From a phage, in the sequence record OZ413489.1: a stretch of 64,000 nt of DNA; one strand, written 5' to 3'. Of the stretch, positions 17,049 to 63,580 are shown piece after piece. A program made the translations under genes and the position numbers. Position 1 is the first letter of the stretch. Each line of letters begins with the position of its first letter. A model generated the notes under the pieces. It searched no databases. It was not told the origin of the DNA and saw only the letters and a list, made by a program, of their open reading frames with translations.

Positions 17049-17530
17049 TTCCCGACAATATGGATAATAAGAGTTGTCGAGGGGGAGGCCCCCAATCGTT
17101 GACCAGATAGATAGGAGTTAAAATCATGGCTATTGTTACCGCTGGCTATCTTCAAAGATGCGGAAGCAAAACAACGCCGGATCTCAATACATGAGATCAT
17201 CAACCTTAACGCTGGAGGCACACCATACCGCCCAGGACCTGGCCGTGAGATGGACAATACGCTAGCGATCCTGAAGATACGCCGTAAACGGTCCTCCCTT
17301 ACTCTGGACTCATTACACACAATGCAGCCTCCGTTCCAGGTGACCGGGAAACGGATCGCCAGGTCCTGGACAAAGGCCAATGATCGGACCGTATAAATAA
17401 AAGTGTTTTGGTACTGATTTTGGGGTTGACTTGTTCGGCCCCTTTTGCTATTCTTATTAAACGGGCGGCACTTGGGAACAGGGGGAGACAATCACCGGGC
17501 CTGCCTGTCATATAAGAACTATAAAAACCG
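17049..17530 (+). other. promoter-driven GC-rich leader region: candidate 22-aa leader ORF or structured RNA
   Basis: ttgcat-16-gataat promoter at 17049-17076; 22-aa ORF at 17126 with aggag RBS; both long ORFs here look non-protein-like. Confidence 0.35.
17486..17508. repeat. 23-nt inverted-repeat arm, right
   Basis: ggagacaatcaccgggcctgcc is the reverse complement of 10045-10067. Confidence 0.75.
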
Positions 17531-17559
17531 TTGACATCTGCCATGGGGTGGGGTAACAT
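17531..17559 (+). promoter_or_regulatory. sigma70-like promoter (ttgaca-17-taacat)
   Basis: Hexamers upstream of 17614 gene. Confidence 0.5.
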
Positions 17560-17613
17560 TTATCTTGAAGGGGCAAAAGTGCCCACACAACAACCAAGAG
17601 AGAGGAAAACACT

Positions 17614-17886
17614 ATGTCAAACTGGATTAATCAAGAAGTCGAATCACGTTTTAATGCTATTTGGGATCTCATCGAAAAAGAAGACGGCACATCAAGCCCC
17701 TACCTCAACAATTTGGAATTCCATTTTGTGGAAGCGATGAACGCAGAACATGATCACGAAGGTGGCGCGGATGAGTTCGCTAAAGGTTATGGCTTTAACA
17801 ATGCCAACGAAATGATCGAGGCGGTAGTACTCCAGGCTGAGGAAGATTATCAACTAAAAACGCTTGAATTCTGCCGCCGCAAGTAA
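17614..17886 (+). CDS. hypothetical protein
   Basis: 90-aa ORF, RBS agagagga. Confidence 0.6.
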   Translation: MSNWINQEVESRFNAIWDLIEKEDGTSSPYLNNLEFHFVEAMNAEHDHEGGADEFAKGYGFNNANEMIEAVVLQAEEDYQLKTLEFCRRK

Positions 17887-17946
17887 TAAGATAATGACAC
17901 GGGCCAAAAGGCCCACTAATCAGAACCGCACAAAGAGGTAAACATC

Positions 17947-18210
17947 ATGAAACGTCTTGATCAGCTCAAATTAGTTCAATATATGGCTTATCGTGTTCTT
18001 GAAGTCCAGAAAGGTAGCAAAAAAGAGGTTTGCGAGAAAGCTTATAAGATCTTCACTCGCAAAAAAGATGACTGGATGCTACGCCAGACTAAAAAGGCTG
18101 ACATCTTGGGGTACCTGGAAGAAGAGATCCGCCTTGAAGAGCAAGAAGAGATCCGCCGTAGTGAGGCAGATTATCAGGCAGCTTGGGAAAACTGGATGAG
18201 CAACAAATAA
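17947..18210 (+). CDS. hypothetical protein
   Basis: 87-aa ORF, RBS aagaggtaaa. Confidence 0.6.
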   Translation: MKRLDQLKLVQYMAYRVLEVQKGSKKEVCEKAYKIFTRKKDDWMLRQTKKADILGYLEEEIRLEEQEEIRRSEADYQAAWENWMSNK

Positions 18211-18228
18211 TACAACAAGGTGCACGGT

Positions 18229-18256
18229 CAGGGGCTTAAAGCCCCTTTCTTTTTGT
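18229..18256 (+). terminator. intrinsic terminator closing the + strand block
   Basis: aggggc-ttaaa-gcccct followed by ttctttttg. Confidence 0.65.
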
Positions 18257-18859
18257 CTCCTCTTTTCCTACCACAAATGGCCCCGCCTGGCAAATGGAAT
18301 AATCAACAAGCCAGCAATTAACCCCACTGTACAAACATACATATAAAATAACTATTGCATAATTTTTCATTGTGTGGTAGCAGTGCCATTTTTACACGTT
18401 TTTCCTTCCAAAATTGCACGTAATGCAGCATTTGCACAAAATTTAACCTGATGCATATCTTCAATAGCTTGTCAACAACTAAAAATCTTTATAAGTCATA
18501 CACTTACATAACTACAAAAACGTTTTCTACGTGAAAAATCGAGTATAACTATAGCCGCCAGATCTCAGAATTTACGTACGCTCGCCATTCTATAGCCTGC
18601 TAAGCATTTATTCCAACCATAGAATAACGGAATAGTCAATACCTGCATAAAATAATTATTCGTGTAAACTGCATAACATAAATCGGCCCAGGTGTCAACA
18701 TTTTTCGTAAACAGTCTGGAATTGTCACGTTAGGTTACCATAAGCAGAGAAATCTTTAGTCGTCTAATGTTTACTGTACATTACTATACTGACTGGAATC
18801 ATTAGATGACTAAGAGAAAGATAAGAAATAATTAATAATGTAATTATTTTACCTGTAAC

Positions 18860-19125
18860 AATAAGGCAACTATGCAAACGAATGGCATGGCGCGACGGAG
18901 TCGCGACATAATATAAAAGCAGTAACCATCACCCCCGTGATAGTTTGTCTGCAAACTATTAATCAGATCATAGTTGCCTTGTATTTAGTTAATCATGACA
19001 TGACAAGCAAGGCAACTATAGATCTGCTAATAGTTGCCCTGCTTTTATATTATGTCATGCTAATTATAATCAGTGCGATTATTGTCATGTATAATTATTG
19101 TCATGCAAACGAATGGCATGGCTGA
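18860..19125. repeat. array of aaggcaactat motifs in both orientations plus duplicated gcaaacgaatggcatggc
   Basis: Copies near 18863, 18970 (inverted), 19009, 19031 (inverted variant); 18-mer at 18874 and 19106; cgcgac-ggag-tcgcg palindrome. Confidence 0.6.
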
Positions 19126-19132
19126 TTATCGG

Positions 19133-19230
19133 TGTGTAAACAGTCAATCATGTAAATGGTTAGCATGTGAACAATCAGGAATGTAAACAATCCAGTGTGT
19201 AAACTAATAGGTGTGTAAAAGTGTCATGTT
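19133..19230. repeat. iteron-like array of six tgtaaac-type direct repeats
   Basis: gtgtgtaaacag, atgtaaatgg, atgtgaacaa, aatgtaaacaa, gtgtgtaaact, gtgtgtaaaag at 10-20 bp spacing. Confidence 0.55.
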
Positions 19231-19364
19231 GTGTCAGTTAGGTCACATTATGTCAGACAAGTTTTTCTCCTCTTTGTCAAGTGCTGCATGAAAAATTTAC
19301 AAGCTTGTATGGTAGCATTTTTGCGGCCCTGTTTACATTCAGTAATGTATGTATAATCCTTGTT

Positions 19365-19527
19365 GTGTGGGCGTTTAGACGTCTAGACGGTTGGAAGTCC
19401 ACAGGTCAATATCTAATCTATCGGCTGCTAACTATATCCCACACATGTGTGGGCGTTTAGACGTCTAGACGGTTGGAAGTCCACAGGTCAATATCTAATC
19501 TATCGGCTGCTAACTATATCCCACACA
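19365..19527 (+). repeat. perfect tandem duplication of an 81-bp unit (82-bp period)
   Basis: Unit gtgtgggcg...tagacgtcta...cccacaca twice; 7-bp terminal inverted repeat gtgtggg/cccacac; tataat hexamer at 19351-19356. Confidence 0.8.
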
Positions 19528-19789
19528 AATAGTAAGAAATATGATTGTTATATGCGTAAACTGTAACTCATGTTATCAATCCCTGTATGGATCGCCAGTG
19601 GTGCGCATAATAGGTATTATGTTAAATTGCCCGTAATGATAACAGTTCTCACAATGATAGGTATTCTCATTCATCCACACAAAATAGGTTGCAAATGTTG
19701 TGCCACTGTGTGAACGGCCTGGCCTATTAATTTCTCTCACTGCCTCGATATTTGAGAATTGTTATAAGAATGAGAAGTATTCCCATTCC

Positions 19790-54067: not shown

Positions 54068-55351
54068 TCATTCCAGAACCTCCCAAGTGTCTGGGTCAAC
54101 ATTTCGGACGCAGATACCGACAGGGAATTGGTAGTTGTTGTCTTCTGTCCTTGATTGATATTTGAAGGTGACAAACTTGCCGATCATTTCCTGCATCCTG
54201 TCATAGCTACGCTCCTCGTGCGTGCCTTTCATCTTCATTTTAACAATAACACCTTCCTTGTCAACACAGATAAGAACACCTTCATCATTCTTATCTTTCT
54301 CAACGTCAATAACTTTCACCTCTGCGTCGTTGAACTTTTTCCATTTCAATGCTTCAGATGTTCGCTGACCGTACTCGTATTTACCGCAGAAATTACGCAT
54401 GATAGTACCTTCATATCCTTCGGACATGAATATACCAACAGATTCTTCGCAATGATCAACTGTGTACGCAAGCTCTGCGTCAACAACCTTGATATGGTCA
54501 AGCATCAGAGTGGTAACGGTATCCTCTGCATCCATAAGATCCTTGCAGCGTCCAGACTCTGTTTCTGGATCCCACCACACCTTGTCGCTAGGAATATCAA
54601 AAATGTGATACTCCAGATCGTAGCTACAGTACCCACCGTAACGCAAATCATCACGAACAGGCTCAACATCGACAGGAATATCTACCTTGTTGAAGTTTTT
54701 GTATGTTGATAAGCCTGCCTTAATTGCTGCATGACGGCGTTTTTTATCTGCCTCATAGTCTTTATCGATCTCGGCCTGAATTTCTTCCTGTGTGCGCCAC
54801 CGTTTAGCAAGAGACACTATTTTCTGCAGAGGAAGACCATGAATATAGAGCTCTCCGTCGAGCTGTTTAATCCCGGTGGTTAGGTGGAAAGAGCGAAGTT
54901 GCTCCAGAAGCTTTCCTTGAATAGGGTAGGACTTATTACCACGGGAAATAAATTTAGGCTCACCATTTTGGAAAACAACAAGCAGACGAAGGCCATCTAA
55001 CTTACGCAAGATCCAGCAAGGTAATTTAAGTGCCTTGCCACGCTTCAGGTAGTCATGCACCAGCATGGGTAAAAGATCAACACCCTGCTCGCAATCTTCC
55101 ATGTTTTCAACATACCCCAGACGGACTTGTTTTTCCCACTTGCTGATAGCCTCAAGCTCGGCCTGTTGCTCAGCTGTAGTCTCGTTGGCACGACCTACGT
55201 TCTTAGGTGTGCATACCGTCTCTTTGTACTGCAGTTTACCATCAAGCTTGCCAAACTCTACGATAACCTTATCACCATCCGTGAATACTTTCCACTGTTG
55301 GTAGCTGCCATCTTTATTCAGTGCGTACAGTGTTGTTTTGATCTGATGCAT
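54068..55351 (-). CDS. ATP-dependent DNA ligase (putative)
   Basis: Motif I KxDGxR (RKLDGLR); 427 aa; ligase versus other nucleotidyltransferase not fully resolved. Confidence 0.6.
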   Translation of the reverse strand: MHQIKTTLYALNKDGSYQQWKVFTDGDKVIVEFGKLDGKLQYKETVCTPKNVGRANETTAEQQAELEAISKWEKQVRLGYVENMEDCEQGVDLLPMLVHDYLKRGKALKLPCWILRKLDGLRLLVVFQNGEPKFISRGNKSYPIQGKLLEQLRSFHLTTGIKQLDGELYIHGLPLQKIVSLAKRWRTQEEIQAEIDKDYEADKKRRHAAIKAGLSTYKNFNKVDIPVDVEPVRDDLRYGGYCSYDLEYHIFDIPSDKVWWDPETESGRCKDLMDAEDTVTTLMLDHIKVVDAELAYTVDHCEESVGIFMSEGYEGTIMRNFCGKYEYGQRTSEALKWKKFNDAEVKVIDVEKDKNDEGVLICVDKEGVIVKMKMKGTHEERSYDRMQEMIGKFVTFKYQSRTEDNNYQFPVGICVRNVDPDTWEVLE

Positions 55352-55978: not shown

Positions 55979-56692
55979 TTAAATATACTCTGTTACATCC
56001 TTGAAGCTCGAAGGCTTCATGATCTTACCTTTACTGTCAAGGAATATGATAACTTTATTACCGTTGTAGAATTCTTCCTTAGCAACAAAACCTTCATATC
56101 GACCATCAAAGCGTCGTTCAAGATCTTTAATCTCCAACTCGATGAGTTGTTCAGCAGGCATATCTGCACTGGCACCGTGTGAATACCGTAGATGGTTGAC
56201 CCGTGCAAACTTGCTGTCATTCGATTTGAGAACCTTACGCATCATCCCGCACACATCGCCGCGAAGCTGGAACAGCAAAGCTGTTGACAACTCTGCTAAG
56301 CGGTAAGCGGATGCTCTTTGCTTAGAGGTGTTTTTCGCAGCGATCAGTGTATCATAGAACTCACCGATCTTGAACTTAAGACCTCGTGGATTATCAAACA
56401 GGTTTGACCACTTTTCGTGATTGTCATTAACAAGATAAGCGGCATAACTTGTGACAACGTGAAGATCGCAGGCCTCTTTTAGCAGGTGATCTCCACCATC
56501 CCCTTTCTCCAGCTCTTCCAAAACTTCATTGAACTCTTCCTCAATGAAGCTAAGCTGTAATTCGAACGGTATGTATGATTTTTTCACTTTAGCTGCCACA
56601 CGGTTCCAGTTTTCCACCCAGTTGGCAGACCAAAGGTAGTTTTCAGGTTGGGACAGTTTTTCCAGGTTGTCAATTAATTTGGTATTCAGCAT
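55979..56692 (-). CDS. hypothetical protein, possible MazG-like NTP pyrophosphohydrolase
   Basis: EEEFNEVLEELEKGD...LLKEACDL resembles the MazG EExxE...D pattern; weak. Confidence 0.35.
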   Translation of the reverse strand: MLNTKLIDNLEKLSQPENYLWSANWVENWNRVAAKVKKSYIPFELQLSFIEEEFNEVLEELEKGDGGDHLLKEACDLHVVTSYAAYLVNDNHEKWSNLFDNPRGLKFKIGEFYDTLIAAKNTSKQRASAYRLAELSTALLFQLRGDVCGMMRKVLKSNDSKFARVNHLRYSHGASADMPAEQLIELEIKDLERRFDGRYEGFVAKEEFYNGNKVIIFLDSKGKIMKPSSFKDVTEYI

Positions 56693-56705: not shown

Positions 56706-57467
56706 TTAAAGTTCCATAAAGTTTTCTACGGTCTCAATGAATGTTTTATCAGAGAAGGCATCAACCGCACCGTTAAACCAAACTGGGATGCCGCGATCCT
56801 CATACTGGTAAATATCACTACGTGAAATGCCATTCTCCTCTAGATGCTGTGAGTCGTATTTATTAACGATCAGTAGTTTGGTTCCCTTATTGCAGGCAGG
56901 GAATAGCTCCCAGTTAAAATTGATAACTGTGTTGGAACACCCTACAAGGATAACCATATCATTGCTTGTAAGAGAAGTCAACAGGTCATACATGTCTGTA
57001 TACTTCGGAGCTACTTCTCCGAAGAACACCACATTAGGTTTAACCCAGGTATACTTTCCTGCATCTACCTCAGAGTATCCAATGTCCTTAATGACGTCAC
57101 TTCCTTCATCGTCCTCATAGACTATTTCTGGCAAATACCCGTGAACATGTAAAATATCTTCATGTTTTACACCAGCACGCTCCAGCAAATCATCTACATT
57201 GGTGGTAAGGTTGATCACACGACCAGACCAGCGGGAATACCACTCAGCGATCCGAAGATGTGCAAGGTTAGGCTCAACACCGCCTAGAGCTACACGACGT
57301 GCATTGTAAAAGTCATGCACCTTGTAGTAGTTCTTGGCAAAGGTGTGGATGTTGCACACCTCATCGATGCTGAAATTCTCCCACATTGCAGTGCTACCAG
57401 ATCGGAAAGTGGGAATACCAGATTCAGCGCTCAAACCAGCACCGGAGATAATAATCAGTCGTCGCAT
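56706..57467 (-). CDS. Sir2-family (sirtuin-like) NAD-dependent protein
   Basis: GAGLSAESGIPTFR, TTNVDDL and HG motifs match Sir2/CobB; no Zn-ribbon Cys pairs seen. Confidence 0.7.
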   Translation of the reverse strand: MRRLIIISGAGLSAESGIPTFRSGSTAMWENFSIDEVCNIHTFAKNYYKVHDFYNARRVALGGVEPNLAHLRIAEWYSRWSGRVINLTTNVDDLLERAGVKHEDILHVHGYLPEIVYEDDEGSDVIKDIGYSEVDAGKYTWVKPNVVFFGEVAPKYTDMYDLLTSLTSNDMVILVGCSNTVINFNWELFPACNKGTKLLIVNKYDSQHLEENGISRSDIYQYEDRGIPVWFNGAVDAFSDKTFIETVENFMEL

Positions 57468-57475
57468 AAGTGTCC

Positions 57476-57826
57476 TCAGTAGATGTTTTGTTTAATCTCT
57501 ATTCCAAACTTTTTAAACGAGTCAGCTGCAAGCATGAATTTACGAGCCGCTGATGGGTTAGAAGTATGCACGAAAATCTTCACGTTGTCAACTACAGGGG
57601 GCTTACCAAATACAAATTTTTCCTCCAACATAGATAGGCAATCGTACCCTTCGAACACCTCTCCAAGGTCGTTGTCCATGTGCCACTCAGAAACGCGTCT
57701 GTAGAGCTTTCCCCTATCGTTAATAAAATCTATAAACTCGGAGGAATTCTTTAGCCAAATAGCGTCTGGGAGCCCATAATTTGACGGATCTCTCAAGTCA
57801 TCCAGCCACACAATCAACTTCTTCAT
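57476..57826 (-). CDS. hypothetical protein
   Basis: 116-aa ORF between Sir2 and RNA ligase. Confidence 0.55.
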   Translation of the reverse strand: MKKLIVWLDDLRDPSNYGLPDAIWLKNSSEFIDFINDRGKLYRRVSEWHMDNDLGEVFEGYDCLSMLEEKFVFGKPPVVDNVKIFVHTSNPSAARKFMLAADSFKKFGIEIKQNIY

Positions 57827-58758
57827 TGCATATAGTTCTCGTTGTGGAAATAGTAATCAAGTATCTCACGGCGTTCCTGCTCCAGGAGGCAGTTCCACAC
57901 ATCTTCTGTGTAATTGTTACGAATGAAGTTTACCATGCCGTAAAACTCTTCGTCAACACGTTTAAAGATATCATCATCCCAAATCCTCCAAGCTTTACCC
58001 CTCATTACGGCCTTCCGTGCCAGGTAGTATGGAGACTTGATCTTCAGCTGCAGGTCATAAGGGTAGTAAGGCTTACGGATCATATACCCTTCGCCCCTTG
58101 TTTCTGCGGCTAATTCTTTTGCATAGCTGAACGGGATTTCACGCACAGTGTGAGGACGTTTTGCACCAAGGTATTTGGCAATCCCATCTAAAGCTGCTTC
58201 TGGTAGCATTATTCCAGAATCATTATATCTGCAACCTATCAAATATGCGCCATGGTCTTCTTGAACAATATGCGGATCTGAAGGGTGACAAATTTCAAAC
58301 ATGAATGTCATGTTTTCATTGCCCATAACCTTCTTGATAAGATCTAAATTACCACATTGCTCTTGGATGGTTTCCTTTGCAAGGTTACAATATGGAGAAT
58401 CAAGAGACCCGGTTGTTGAGAACAATAGGTCACCTTTATGAGATGATACCACACCAAGGAATCCGTTCTTTTTCTCTACCGCAGTCACAAGCTTATTGTC
58501 AGGCAGGTTGGTGGAGTTTTCTCCCAAGTTAAACACTTTTGTGAAGGGCCATGCCACAACATTTCCTTCATTACCTACAACAATGCCTCGACACTCCAGT
58601 AAACGAGGGGACAAATGCCATAAATTGTTGTAAAATACTTTTCTAGCATATTTATAGATCTTTAACCCAAGATCCGGGTAATATCTACTGGTTACAAGAC
58701 CTTTGTCAACTAGGTCGTCTGCATTAAAATACTTCATCATACGTTCCTCATTTGTCAT
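57823..58758 (-). CDS. RNA ligase, T4 RnlA (Rnl1)-like
   Basis: LLECRGIVVG...KVFNLGEN resembles T4 Rnl1 (ALECRGIMFE...FFNLNENP); nucleotidyltransferase motif EKKNG. Confidence 0.6.
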   Translation of the reverse strand: MTNEERMMKYFNADDLVDKGLVTSRYYPDLGLKIYKYARKVFYNNLWHLSPRLLECRGIVVGNEGNVVAWPFTKVFNLGENSTNLPDNKLVTAVEKKNGFLGVVSSHKGDLLFSTTGSLDSPYCNLAKETIQEQCGNLDLIKKVMGNENMTFMFEICHPSDPHIVQEDHGAYLIGCRYNDSGIMLPEAALDGIAKYLGAKRPHTVREIPFSYAKELAAETRGEGYMIRKPYYPYDLQLKIKSPYYLARKAVMRGKAWRIWDDDIFKRVDEEFYGMVNFIRNNYTEDVWNCLLEQERREILDYYFHNENYMQ

Positions 58759-58801
58759 TTTGTCAGTCTATCCTGCCACACAAATAACCTAGTGTCAACA
58801 C

Positions 58802-58830
58802 TTGAAATTAACAAAACAGTTAGGTATACT
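58802..58830 (+). promoter_or_regulatory. sigma70-like promoter (ttgaaa-17-tatact)
   Basis: In the divergent intergenic region upstream of the kinase gene. Confidence 0.5.
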
Positions 58831-58858
58831 ATCGTTGAAATTAAAACGGAGTATTACT

Positions 58859-59269
58859 ATGTCTAAAATGCTATATATCGTGCGTGGTCTACCAGGGTCT
58901 GGCAAATCAACACTGGCAAATGCGCTATCTTTAGAAGGTCTGTATCCACATTTTGAGAACGACATGTTCTGGTACGACGATGATGGAAATTACAACTGGG
59001 ATGCAAGTAAAGTAACACTTGCAGCAAAATGGTGCAAAGATAACGTAGAAGATATGATGCGTATGGGATACGACCGTATCGTGGTAAGTAATACGTTTAC
59101 AAAAGAAAAATATGTGCAAGAATATATTGACATGGCGATCAGTCATGGGTATAGTTATACCGTGATCGTGGTTGAAAACCGCCATGGTAATAAAAGCATT
59201 CATGATGTTCCAGACAGGGTTGTGGATCGTATGGAACGCCAGCTTAAAAACTGCATTAAACTTAAATGA
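58859..59269 (+). CDS. P-loop polynucleotide 5'-kinase-like protein
   Basis: Walker A RGLPGSGKST; layout similar to the T4 Pnk kinase domain; track start 58802 lies in the promoter. Confidence 0.55.
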   Translation: MSKMLYIVRGLPGSGKSTLANALSLEGLYPHFENDMFWYDDDGNYNWDASKVTLAAKWCKDNVEDMMRMGYDRIVVSNTFTKEKYVQEYIDMAISHGYSYTVIVVENRHGNKSIHDVPDRVVDRMERQLKNCIKLK

Positions 59270-59276
59270 GGAATGT

Positions 59277-59831
59277 ATGAAATACTTTGTAACAAGCGAC
59301 ACACACTTTCTCCACCAGCGGGTCATGGAGTTCGATTCATGTCAAAAACACAGATCTCAGTATGATCACAATCTTGACAGTATGAATGCGGGAATCATCG
59401 CCGAGTGGAACTCTGTTGTGTCACCTGCAGACACTGTGTTCCACTTGGGAGATATTGCGTGCACTAATGATAAGAATATCAACAACTTACTTCCAGATAT
59501 TCTAAATATGTTGAACGGACATATTATTCTTGTTCGTGGCAACCATGACACAAGGACGACTGTCAGAATTATGAAAGAGTTCGGTCATGAGGTTGTAGAT
59601 TATTACGAGCTTCGCCACAACAAGAATTTGATCTGTATGAGCCATTACCAATTTGCAAAGTGGAACAGAAAGCCTCACGGATCAGTCCAACTGTTCGGTC
59701 ATGCTCACGGAACCACACAACAGTTGTTTGGCAGGCAGCTTGATGTCGGTTGGGATGTGTGGGGGAGACTCTTACCATTAGAAGAGGCATACCGTATTGC
59801 AATGAGTTTTGCTATTGACAGCGGGGAGTAA
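59277..59831 (+). CDS. calcineurin-like metallophosphoesterase
   Basis: VTSDTHF, HLGDI and GNHDT phosphoesterase motifs; start at MKYFVTSD. Confidence 0.7.
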   Translation: MKYFVTSDTHFLHQRVMEFDSCQKHRSQYDHNLDSMNAGIIAEWNSVVSPADTVFHLGDIACTNDKNINNLLPDILNMLNGHIILVRGNHDTRTTVRIMKEFGHEVVDYYELRHNKNLICMSHYQFAKWNRKPHGSVQLFGHAHGTTQQLFGRQLDVGWDVWGRLLPLEEAYRIAMSFAIDSGE

Positions 59832-62767: not shown

Positions 62768-62842
62768 GCCCTGTTAGCTTAGTGGATAAAGCAGCGGCCT
62801 TCTAAGCCGTTGACACTGGTTCGAGTCCAGTACGGGGTGCCA
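62768..62842 (+). tRNA. tRNA-Arg (anticodon UCU)
   Basis: Cloverleaf folded by hand; loop cttctaa; TTCGAGT T-loop; encoded CCA. Confidence 0.75.
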
Positions 62843-62846
62843 AATT

Positions 62847-62933
62847 GGGGAGTTATCCCGTAGAGGTAGCGGTGTAGACTGTAAATCTATTGTCATTGCG
62901 ACTCGGGTGGTTCGACTCCACCACTCCCCACCA
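62847..62933 (+). tRNA. tRNA-Tyr (anticodon GUA), long variable arm
   Basis: Perfect acceptor ggggagt/actcccc; loop ctgtaaa; encoded CCA. Confidence 0.75.
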
Positions 62934-63047
62934 AATTTATATTTTTAGATGCATAAATAATACAGATAATGGCATTGATATTTATCGTCGTTTATACTAG
63001 TCACTAACTGCTCGAAAATCAGTGTCATTATCAGTATAATTTATAAA

Positions 63048-63138
63048 GGAGGGTAGGGAGCAATGGTGCTCAAGCGGTCTTGAAAACCGTCCCGTTGAGG
63101 ATGACTCGATGATGGTTCGATTCCATTACTCTCCGCCA
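63048..63138 (+). tRNA. tRNA-Ser (anticodon UGA), long variable arm
   Basis: Anticodon arm gcggt-cttgaaa-accgt close to E. coli tRNA-Ser(UGA); encoded CCA. Confidence 0.7.
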
Positions 63139-63236
63139 CATTGTTGACCTTGTAATTAAGCGAAAGCCGGAAGCAGAACCGGATTATCAAATGTTACAGT
63201 CGTCATCGCCGACTAGCAACATGGTCAACATGCTGA

Positions 63237-63335
63237 GCTAGGTAAGCCCTTTGGCAAGGGCGAGGATTTTTAATCCTGAAAATAGACGAGGTAGTCGTTG
63301 AATACATAGGTGGTTCGATTCCATCACCTAGCACC
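63237..63335 (+). tRNA. tRNA-like gene with aberrant anticodon arm
   Basis: Acceptor gctaggt/acctagc, D-arm and T-arm fold; anticodon region is either a 5-nt loop or a 4-bp stem with loop tttttaa; 3' end is CC then T. Confidence 0.35.
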
Positions 63336-63340
63336 TTTTT

Positions 63341-63416
63341 GCTGATGTAGCACAATCGGTAGTGCAATTGATTTGTAATCAATAGGTTGTAGGTTCAAAT
63401 CCTGCCATCAGCACCA
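63341..63416 (+). tRNA. tRNA-Thr (anticodon UGU)
   Basis: Perfect acceptor gctgatg/catcagc; loop tttgtaa; encoded CCA. Confidence 0.8.
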
Positions 63417-63417
63417 A

Positions 63418-63492
63418 GGCCCTGTAGCTGGAAGGTTCAAGCAAGCGACTCATAATCGCCAGACGGTGGTTCAATTCCACCCAGGGCCACCA
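63418..63492 (+). tRNA. tRNA-Met (anticodon CAU; could be Ile-lysidine type)
   Basis: Perfect acceptor ggccctg/cagggcc; loop ctcataa; encoded CCA. Confidence 0.75.
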
Positions 63493-63503
63493 AATAGTAA
63501 ATA

Positions 63504-63580
63504 CTCCGCGTAGCTCAGCTTGGTAGAGCGCCTGATTTGGGATCAGGAGGTCGAGTGTTCGAATCACTTCGTGGAGACCA
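63504..63580 (+). tRNA. tRNA-Pro (anticodon UGG)
   Basis: Anticodon arm cctga-tttggga-tcagg; canonical D-arm; encoded CCA. Confidence 0.75.

Follow-up and report, generated by a model that had tools for sequence, protein, structure and literature searches.

Does a phage that encodes an RNA ligase, a P-loop kinase and a metallophosphoesterase (MPE) side by side use them to mend cleaved RNA and, if so, by which chemistry? tRNA-cleaving immune systems (PrrC, RloC, PARIS, retron-PtuAB and Cas13) are now recognised as common, and T4 Pnkp/Rnl1 is, to our knowledge, the sole characterised phage repair answer to tRNA cleavage. The genes considered here lie in a 64,000-nucleotide stretch of phage DNA (sequence record OZ413489.1; hereafter the window), which is the last 64 kb of an rV5-like Vequintavirus genome 99% identical to Escherichia phages A51.2 and WalterGehring. 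We consider it rather probable that the three form a phage RNA end-healing and sealing module, most plausibly one for tRNA cut by host anticodon nucleases. The trio is probably a very common alternative to the T4 solution.

The finding is not new, in that the genes are annotated in more than 100 near-identical rV5-like coliphage genomes and the neighbourhood is in print. The sirtuin-centred RNA-repair neighbourhood of 'Escherichia phage V5 and Proteus phage Mydo', assigned to type 2 and identical in gene content to the window, was published by Iyer, Burroughs, Anand and Aravind (2022, Viruses 14:1977; PMC9503650), whose comparative genomics thus reached the RNA-repair reading for phage V5 independently. 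To that account we add that the trio is a wide core, with Sir2 and cREC confined to a Vequintavirinae-like group, that the kinase and ligase occur as fusions, and that invariant residues of the ligase lie at the offsets of the putative 2'-phosphate (2'-PO4) site of Trl1. The locus is modest as a discovery, and its worth lies in offering biochemists well-defined genes that are easy to clone. What matters most is whether sealing by the ligase depends on a 2'-phosphate and whether a sirtuin can stand in for Tpt1; only if that variant were true would the significance of the locus rise.

A linked trio of genes

A sequence-only reading of the window had proposed a divergently arranged RNA-repair module, and all three open reading frames (ORFs) were found where it had placed them. 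The ligase gene (57823-58758) is on the minus strand, and the kinase gene (58859-59269) and MPE gene (59277-59831) are on the plus strand, the two being distinct ORFs, as it had said. A 100-bp spacer (58759-58858) separates the ligase operon from the kinase-MPE operon. A 3.2-kb query around the trio matched 120 phage records at 90-99% identity, nearly all of them Escherichia Vequintavirus (rV5-like), among them A51.2 (99.3%) and WalterGehring, also called Bas51 (99.1%). The Bas51 annotation names the three products 'RNA ligase', 'polynucleotide kinase' and 'putative phosphoresterase', and flanks them with a 'sirtuin domain NAD-dependent deacetylase' and an ATP-dependent DNA ligase.

The association of the three genes extends well beyond these close relatives. 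The ligase family is present in at least 664 sequenced phage genomes, among them phages of Escherichia, Pseudomonas, Vibrio, Klebsiella, Acinetobacter and Streptomyces. In order to survey its neighbours, 80 IMG/VR loci anchored on ligase relatives of 36-88% identity were searched with the window proteins, and the ligases were collapsed at 70% identity into 35 clusters. Of the 80 loci, 68 contain the kinase and 61 the MPE, nearly always at 1-2 kb from the ligase. In the 35 clusters, with neighbours counted up to 3.5 kb away, the kinase accompanies 27 ligases, the MPE 30, and the two together 25. The genes stand in seven or more different orders. Most frequent is MPE>ligase>kinase on a single strand, which accounts for 39 of the 57 loci with a complete trio, and the divergent layout of the window is seen in a single one of the 57, the one rV5-like locus. 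The divergent arrangement reflects a rearrangement local to the rV5 group, whose kinase-MPE pair has been inverted.

Fusions of an N-terminal kinase to a C-terminal ligase, 421-432 amino acids (aa) in length, were found in about a dozen contigs (L043:577-1875; also L038, L039, L046, L047, L049, L051 and L053-L055), with AAA_33 at residues 15-117 and RNA_lig_T4_1 at residues 183-366. The flanks of the fusion loci hold no MPE of the window's family. When loci were anchored on the kinase instead, freshwater phage contigs were recovered in which the kinase-MPE pair (MPE profile 1e-48) lies 1.8 kb from another ligase family, PF09414. In these contigs (L083-L085:4001-7977) the kinase and MPE genes overlap stop to start and lie upstream of this ligase, which matches PF09414 RNA_ligase plus PF21189; the healing pair therefore combines with alternative sealing enzymes. 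That the linkage outlasts rearrangement, fusion and ligase replacement is strong evidence for one pathway, with kinase, MPE and ligase as a functional unit and a conserved core across many phage lineages.

The three proteins and their known relatives

Each of the three proteins was assigned to a family by hidden Markov model profiles, with scores that place the assignments far above chance: phrog_562 (3e-66) and PF09511 RNA_lig_T4_1 (1e-14) for the ligase, phrog_2071 (2e-58) and AAA_33 (3e-10) for the kinase, and phrog_547 (1e-51) and Metallophos_2 (1e-6) for the MPE. NCBIfam gave only sub-threshold matches for the kinase and the MPE.

The ligase is an ATP-dependent RNA ligase of the Rnl1/Trl1 supergroup, in which it forms a distinct clade equally close to T4 Rnl1 and to fungal Trl1; it is not an orthologue of T4 RnlA, and it is not of the Pnkp type either. 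PF09511, a broad Rnl1-type domain, is matched over the full model (1-227) at 55.3 bits against a gathering threshold of 28.3. The protein collection holds 1,679 homologues, most of them about 300 aa long and encoded on phage contigs of 90-150 kb. A single-sequence search against PDB sequences returned nothing useful, and T4 Rnl1 (2C5U, 9DO4) was found only by a profile of 27 sequences, at 2e-13 and over T4 residues 31-249 only. The same profile did not reach Trl1 among PDB sequences even at E<=10, and the comparison with Trl1 therefore rests on folds and motif offsets: the AF2 model of the ligase is confident (pLDDT 90.8), and Foldseek ranked a Trl1 domain first. In the 2C5U alignment, R57, K74, F76, K96, G99 and E155 of the phage ligase pair with R54, K75, F77, K99, G102 and E159 of T4 Rnl1, and E223-G224, K239 and K241 pair with E227-G228, K240 and K242. 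Motifs I, III, IV and V of the Rnl1 family are thus present, together with the upstream residues equivalent to T4 R54, K75 and F77, and we take the paired T4 residues (R54, K75, F77 and the others) to be those found essential in published mutational work. Across 102 homologues R57, K74, K96, N98, G99, E155, H163, E223, G224, K239, K241, K249 and R253 are invariant, and F76 is Phe in 94.

The label 'RnlA-like' that the sequence-only reading had given this protein is an overstatement. TIGR02308, the T4 RnlA equivalog, scores 38.6 bits against a cut-off of 242 and is matched at model positions 32-250 of 373, which is the nucleotidyltransferase domain only. Mismatches in the 2C5U alignment fall at N98 (T4 D101), T116 (T4 K119) and H163 (T4 I167). 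Motif I accordingly reads KxNG, with the Asn invariant, instead of the KxDG of T4, and the motif Ia position held by Lys119 in T4 Rnl1 is Thr in 101 of the 102 homologues. The T4 C-terminal domain (about 255-374, 120 aa) has no match in the phage ligase, which ends in about 65 helical residues that cannot be aligned to it. 'RnlA' also names an unrelated E. coli toxin, and for that reason the label is better avoided.

The kinase is a stand-alone P-loop protein of 136 aa that matches polynucleotide 5'-kinases by profile and, in its predicted model, by fold, in agreement with the P-loop kinase that had been proposed here. Beyond the assignments above, it matches phrog_505 'polynucleotide kinase' (3e-10), and a search of PDB sequences with its profile found Pnkp1 (4XRP, 1e-8), T4 Pnk (6e-8), CthPnk (3e-6) and mammalian PNKP (3e-5), as well as the tRNA kinase PSTK, all of which rank above small-molecule kinases. 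The AF2 model (pLDDT 85) was compared using Foldseek and gave TM scores of 0.75-0.79 to CthPnk, T4 Pnk and PSTK, with CthPnk the best at 0.79, and of 0.45-0.63 to gluconate, shikimate and adenylate kinases. The GxGK(S/T) loop (G13, G15, K16) and D35 are invariant in the kinase homologues, and D35 pairs with D35 of T4 Pnk, its catalytic Asp. Downstream of D35, R108-H109 (in ENRHG) is nearly invariant and H115 is invariant. A kinase-MPE fusion of the Pnkp kind was sought among the 120 best kinase homologues, all of which proved to be stand-alone proteins of about 130 aa.

The phosphatase had been read as a metallophosphoesterase, and this assignment holds. The 184-aa protein is a binuclear metallophosphoesterase whose metal-ligand motifs (DxH, GD, GNH(D/E), H and GHxH), namely D8-x-H10, G58-D59, G88-N89-H90, H123 and G141-H142-x-H144, are fully or almost fully conserved in 28 homologues. 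A profile built from these homologues found Aquifex aq_1665 (1XM7, 4e-23), then the diesterases GpdQ and Rv0805, and then YfcE. No lambda-phosphatase or Pnkp phosphatase chain was matched by this profile among PDB sequences at E<=1, in a comparison of sequences alone, by which the MPE is closest to aq_1665 and not to the lambda or Pnkp phosphatase. The 'bacterial Pnkp arrangement' suggested earlier therefore stands at the level of the MPE superfamily and falls in detail. MPEs can open 2',3'-cyclic phosphates, with 2'-NMP, mixtures or free hydroxyls as products according to the active site (PMC2190708), and the phage protein is a candidate end-healing enzyme for 2',3'-cyclic phosphate or 3'-phosphate.

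Among known systems, the tRNA repair pathway of T4 against the PrrC anticodon nuclease (Pnkp and Rnl1, or gp63) follows the same logic: there too a lytic coliphage encodes a kinase for 5' ends, a phosphoesterase for 3' ends and an ATP-dependent RNA ligase. In T4, however, the kinase is fused to its phosphatase, and that phosphatase is a DxDxT acyl-phosphatase instead of a binuclear MPE. CthPnkp of the Pnkp/Hen1 system likewise unites a P-loop polynucleotide kinase, an MPE-superfamily phosphoesterase and an ATP-dependent ligase, but in one polypeptide, whereas here three genes lie on two strands and only the kinase and ligase are fused in relatives. The MPE of CthPnkp is lambda-phosphatase-like, while that of the phage appears to be of the aq_1665 type. 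CthPnkp also has an Rnl4-type ligase domain and a Hen1 methyltransferase partner; the phage ligase falls outside the definition of Rnl4, and the Bas51 annotation has no Hen1 near the trio. Fungal and plant Trl1/Tpt1 share with the locus the KxNG motif I and an NAD+-using enzyme, which in the phage is encoded beside the ligase; an invariant His, Lys and Arg of the phage ligase may, by their offsets, correspond to the putative 2'-PO4 site of Trl1. In contrast to that system, the kinase of the window is not fused to the ligase and the neighbours of the locus include no 2H cyclic phosphodiesterase and no Tpt1/KptA, for which cREC, MPE and Sir2 are proposed substitutes only.

Proposed repair chemistry and its competitors

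In the proposed pathway, a host ribonuclease, in the likeliest case an anticodon nuclease acting on tRNA, would cut RNA to leave a 2',3'-cyclic phosphate and a 5'-OH. The 136-aa kinase would phosphorylate the 5'-OH, the MPE would open or remove the cyclic or 3' phosphate to give a 3'-OH, and the ligase, adenylylated on K96, would activate the 5'-phosphate and seal the break. Such a sequence of events would follow the paradigm of T4 tRNA repair against host anticodon nucleases (PMC10946426). The sequence-only reading had credited the trio with all three heal-and-seal activities; the families, their co-occurrence and the kinase-ligase fusions support this, and the activities themselves and the tRNA substrate are probable. 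The earlier reading was thus of something real and correctly sensed, but it was imprecisely classified and incompletely delimited.

Several observations weigh against this pathway. Three residues past the catalytic Asp, where T4 R38 and CthPnk R41 bind the substrate phosphate, 29 kinase homologues have Trp, Tyr, His or Phe and not Arg. The small kinase family is very large (more than 7,900 matches) and also occurs without a ligase nearby. The nearest structural relative of the MPE, aq_1665 (1XM7), is an uncharacterised protein. The ligase has Thr in place of a motif Ia Lys that is essential in T4 Rnl1, and the T4 C-terminal domain that it lacks is the one giving tRNA specificity. Searches of the literature on RNA repair in rV5 and the Vequintavirinae turned up comparative genomics and no experimental test of the three families. 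Against these points stand the gene structure, the family and fold assignments, the intact catalytic motifs and the conserved linkage with its fusions, all of which are observed. The three proteins probably have the enzymatic activities described, act on RNA (tRNA) and serve an anti-defence role.

The module, as delimited earlier, is correct in its trio and incomplete in its extent, since three further genes on the minus strand tightly succeed the ligase, with intergenic distances of -4, 8 and 13 nt. The first encodes cREC (57476-57826), a cyclic-phosphate-processing receiver-like protein of 116 aa whose start overlaps the ligase stop by 4 nt. It matches PF20274 cREC_REC (1e-14; 55 bits against a cut-off of 27), and the residues of its receiver-type acidic pocket (D9-D10, D51, S89 and K96) do not vary among 8 homologues; in fold, pocket and RNA-repair/ADP-ribose context it thus belongs to the family defined in PMC7824862. 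The activity of cREC is a prediction only (PMC7824862, PMC9503650), and the family has been reported solely in RNA-repair and ADP-ribose contexts (PMC9503650). Next comes Sir2 (56706-57467), a Sir2-family NAD+-dependent enzyme of 253 aa (PF02146, 5e-27). Among PDB sequences it comes closest to E. coli CobB (1S5P, 4e-21); the catalytic HG is aligned and the NAD-binding motifs are kept. By direct reading, the region that binds zinc in sirtuins is free of cysteines here, an unusual trait in a protein deacylase. The third gene encodes a MazG-like protein of 237 aa (55979-56692), a nucleotide pyrophosphohydrolase candidate by virtue of its match to phrog_671 'nucleotide pyrophosphohydrolase' (2e-21). 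It has no Pfam, NCBIfam or PDB sequence match and is the weakest assignment of the locus; a MazG is named in the phage V5 neighbourhood of Iyer et al. 2022 (PMC9503650). Sir2 or cREC was found near the ligase in 4 of the 35 ligase clusters only, and so the two are best seen as peculiar to the Vequintavirinae-like lineage and added to a general core. Together with the MazG-like protein they probably add to or alter the chemistry at the 3' end.

These neighbours are central to a different account, in which the pathway is of the yeast type and depends on 2'-phosphate. The MPE, cREC or both would leave a 3'-OH/2'-PO4 end, the ligase would need the 2'-PO4 as Trl1 does, and the 2'-PO4 at the junction would then be taken off in an NAD+-dependent step, either by the phage Sir2 in the role of Tpt1/KptA or by host KptA. 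The ADP-ribose products would be cleared by the MazG-like protein or, in other phages, by Macro proteins. Removal of RNA 2'-phosphates by the sirtuin in the manner of KptA/Tpt1 was proposed by Iyer et al. 2022 (PMC9503650), and the proposal is here extended to the ligase itself; we think it unlikely, though not to be neglected. It accords with the invariance of N98 (in KxNG), H163 (E155+8, after motif III), K249 and R253 (K241+8 and +12, after motif V) in the 102 homologues. In Chaetomium Trl1-LIG a sulfate taken to mimic 2'-PO4 is held by N150, H227 (E218+9), R334 and R337 (K325+9 and +12) (PMC6379707). KxNG is also given for Trl1 in PMC10946426, and T4 Rnl1 differs from the phage at the first two of these putative positions (D101 and I167). 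The correspondence is, however, one of motif offsets only (+0, +8, +8 and +12 here as against +0, +9, +9 and +12), and the ligase profile sees T4 Rnl1 and not Trl1. Translational packing of cREC and Sir2 behind the ligase favours the yeast-type account, as does a mutant CthPnkp MPE whose sole product from cyclic phosphate is 2'-NMP (PMC2190708).

Gene neighbourhoods elsewhere bear on the same question. Sir2 and cREC are lacking within 3.5 kb in 31 of the 35 clusters, but the ligase keeps company with NAD/ADP-ribose genes even without them: in 24 representative loci free of Sir2 and cREC, PRPP synthetase (11) and Macro (7) are the commonest neighbours within about 7 kb. Such neighbours were recorded in L011, L015, L016, L019, L027, L032, L033, L038, L040, L062, L064 and L066, and in L043 the fusion gene is followed directly by the NAD salvage genes for PRPP synthetase and NAMPT. 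This suggests a recurring island of NAD/ADP-ribose and RNA-repair genes, although the ligase and the NAD-salvage and Macro genes might have no more in common than a place in one anti-defence island. Neither Tpt1/KptA nor 2H genes are among the 25 commonest families of 150 ligase neighbours in Sir2-free loci, a ranking in which families that occurred once were not listed. We know of no sirtuin established as an RNA 2'-phosphotransferase. That the whole phage ligase family consists of Trl1-like, 2'-phosphate-dependent tRNA ligases, with a complete yeast-type ligation pathway in rV5-like phages, seems to us doubtful, a shade more so than the mechanism just described. If true, it would explain why the ligase sits among Sir2, cREC and MazG here and among PRPP synthetase, NAMPT and Macro elsewhere, and it would give bacterial KptA, an orphan of the host, a natural substrate, with the zinc-less sirtuin or KptA removing the junction 2'-phosphate. 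Five related small proteins, probably of the HD-domain type, are encoded near the MPE and just ahead of the ligase; of the same 150 neighbours, 2 were matched by HD_4.

Two further explanations would dispense with RNA repair. The kinase and MPE might act on nucleotides or, as 5'-kinase and 3'-phosphatase in the manner of PNKP, on DNA ends, with the ligase sealing DNA or DNA/RNA hybrids during replication or recombination. The ligase does head a leftward block of DNA-metabolism genes (DNA ligase, 5'-exonuclease, ribonucleotide reductases and thymidylate synthase), the T4 Pnk and mammalian PNKP matched by the kinase act on DNA too, and in 43 of the 80 loci the RNA ligase has an ATP-dependent DNA ligase no more than about 5 kb away. 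But the phage already encodes a dedicated ATP-dependent DNA ligase as a separate gene (54068-55351), which makes a DNA role for the RNA ligase less likely, the kinase-MPE pair also accompanies a second RNA-ligase family, and cREC is reported from RNA-repair and ADP-ribose contexts only. Another candidate function comes from nomenclature: phrog_562 and many GenBank records bear the name 'RNA ligase and tail fiber protein attachment catalyst', from which the ligase could be chiefly a catalyst of tail-fibre attachment, the second activity of T4 gp63, with the kinase and MPE unrelated to it. This name is inherited from T4 gp63. The ligase gene stands amid early and metabolic genes and not among tail genes, all of its adenylyltransferase residues are invariant, and linkage and fusion to a polynucleotide kinase make no sense in tail assembly. 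In view of the fold comparisons, the second ligase gene dedicated to DNA, the place of the RNA ligase gene and its fusions to a kinase, we regard the DNA role as very improbable and the tail-fibre role as scarcely credible, and RNA repair as the preferred reading of the trio.

Layout of the locus and its surroundings

The ligase gene, first in its long leftward block, reads 311 aa from the first ATG. A GAGGA ribosome-binding site stands ahead of the second and third ATGs, and the true start is likely the ATG at 58740, which gives 305 aa as in the WalterGehring annotation. For the kinase, the ORF list begins at a TTG (58802), and the ATG at 58859, behind GGAG, gives 136 aa in agreement with the annotation. 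For the MPE, it begins at 59172, and the ATG at 59277, behind GAGGA and 8 nt past the kinase stop, gives 184 aa. A sigma-70-like site (TTGAAA-17-TATACT) is present at 58802-58830 on the plus strand, 29 nt ahead of the kinase ATG. For the ligase operon the 100-bp spacer shows no convincing sigma-70 promoter, its minus strand offering only a TTGACA with a poor -10.

A cluster of seven tRNAs (62768-63580, plus strand) lies outside both operons and provides context and possible substrates. The sequence-only reading had placed the module beside this cluster, which is true loosely: the tRNAs begin 2.9 kb downstream of the MPE gene, beyond a helix-turn-helix (HTH) gene and about eight small ORFs. ARAGORN and Rfam identified Arg(UCU), Tyr(GUA), Ser(UGA), an odd Lys(UUU)-like tRNA, Thr(UGU), a tRNA with a CAU anticodon and Pro(UGG); Bas51 has six tRNAs near its genome end. 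In the odd tRNA (63237-63333, plus strand) the anticodon is UUU (Lys) on a stem of 4 bp, and the variable region carries an additional hairpin of about 26 nt, an unusual feature in a tRNA-Lys. Bas51 calls it tRNA-Lys. It scores 35.5 bits with the Rfam tRNA model and has a fold z of -3.7, and ARAGORN reads a 4-base anticodon and cannot name it. tRNA-Lys(UUU) is the classical target of PrrC, and so the odd tRNA-Lys may be a nuclease-resistant replacement.

Identity as a known defence system was considered for six proteins of the locus and rejected, as PADLOC gave no meaningful match to any of them. At the other end of the window, a group I catalytic intron (Rfam RF00028) was found at 243-478 on the plus strand (64.7 bits against a gathering score of 50). 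The twin genome Bas51 is annotated with several homing endonucleases and a split anaerobic NTP reductase, away from the intron site. Finally, about 2.4 kb of the window (~17250-19720) corresponds to a part of the 99%-identical Bas51 record (93911-96377) without an annotated gene; the stretch has short ORFs only, its GC content falls to 0.36, and it lies where the rightward and leftward gene blocks converge.

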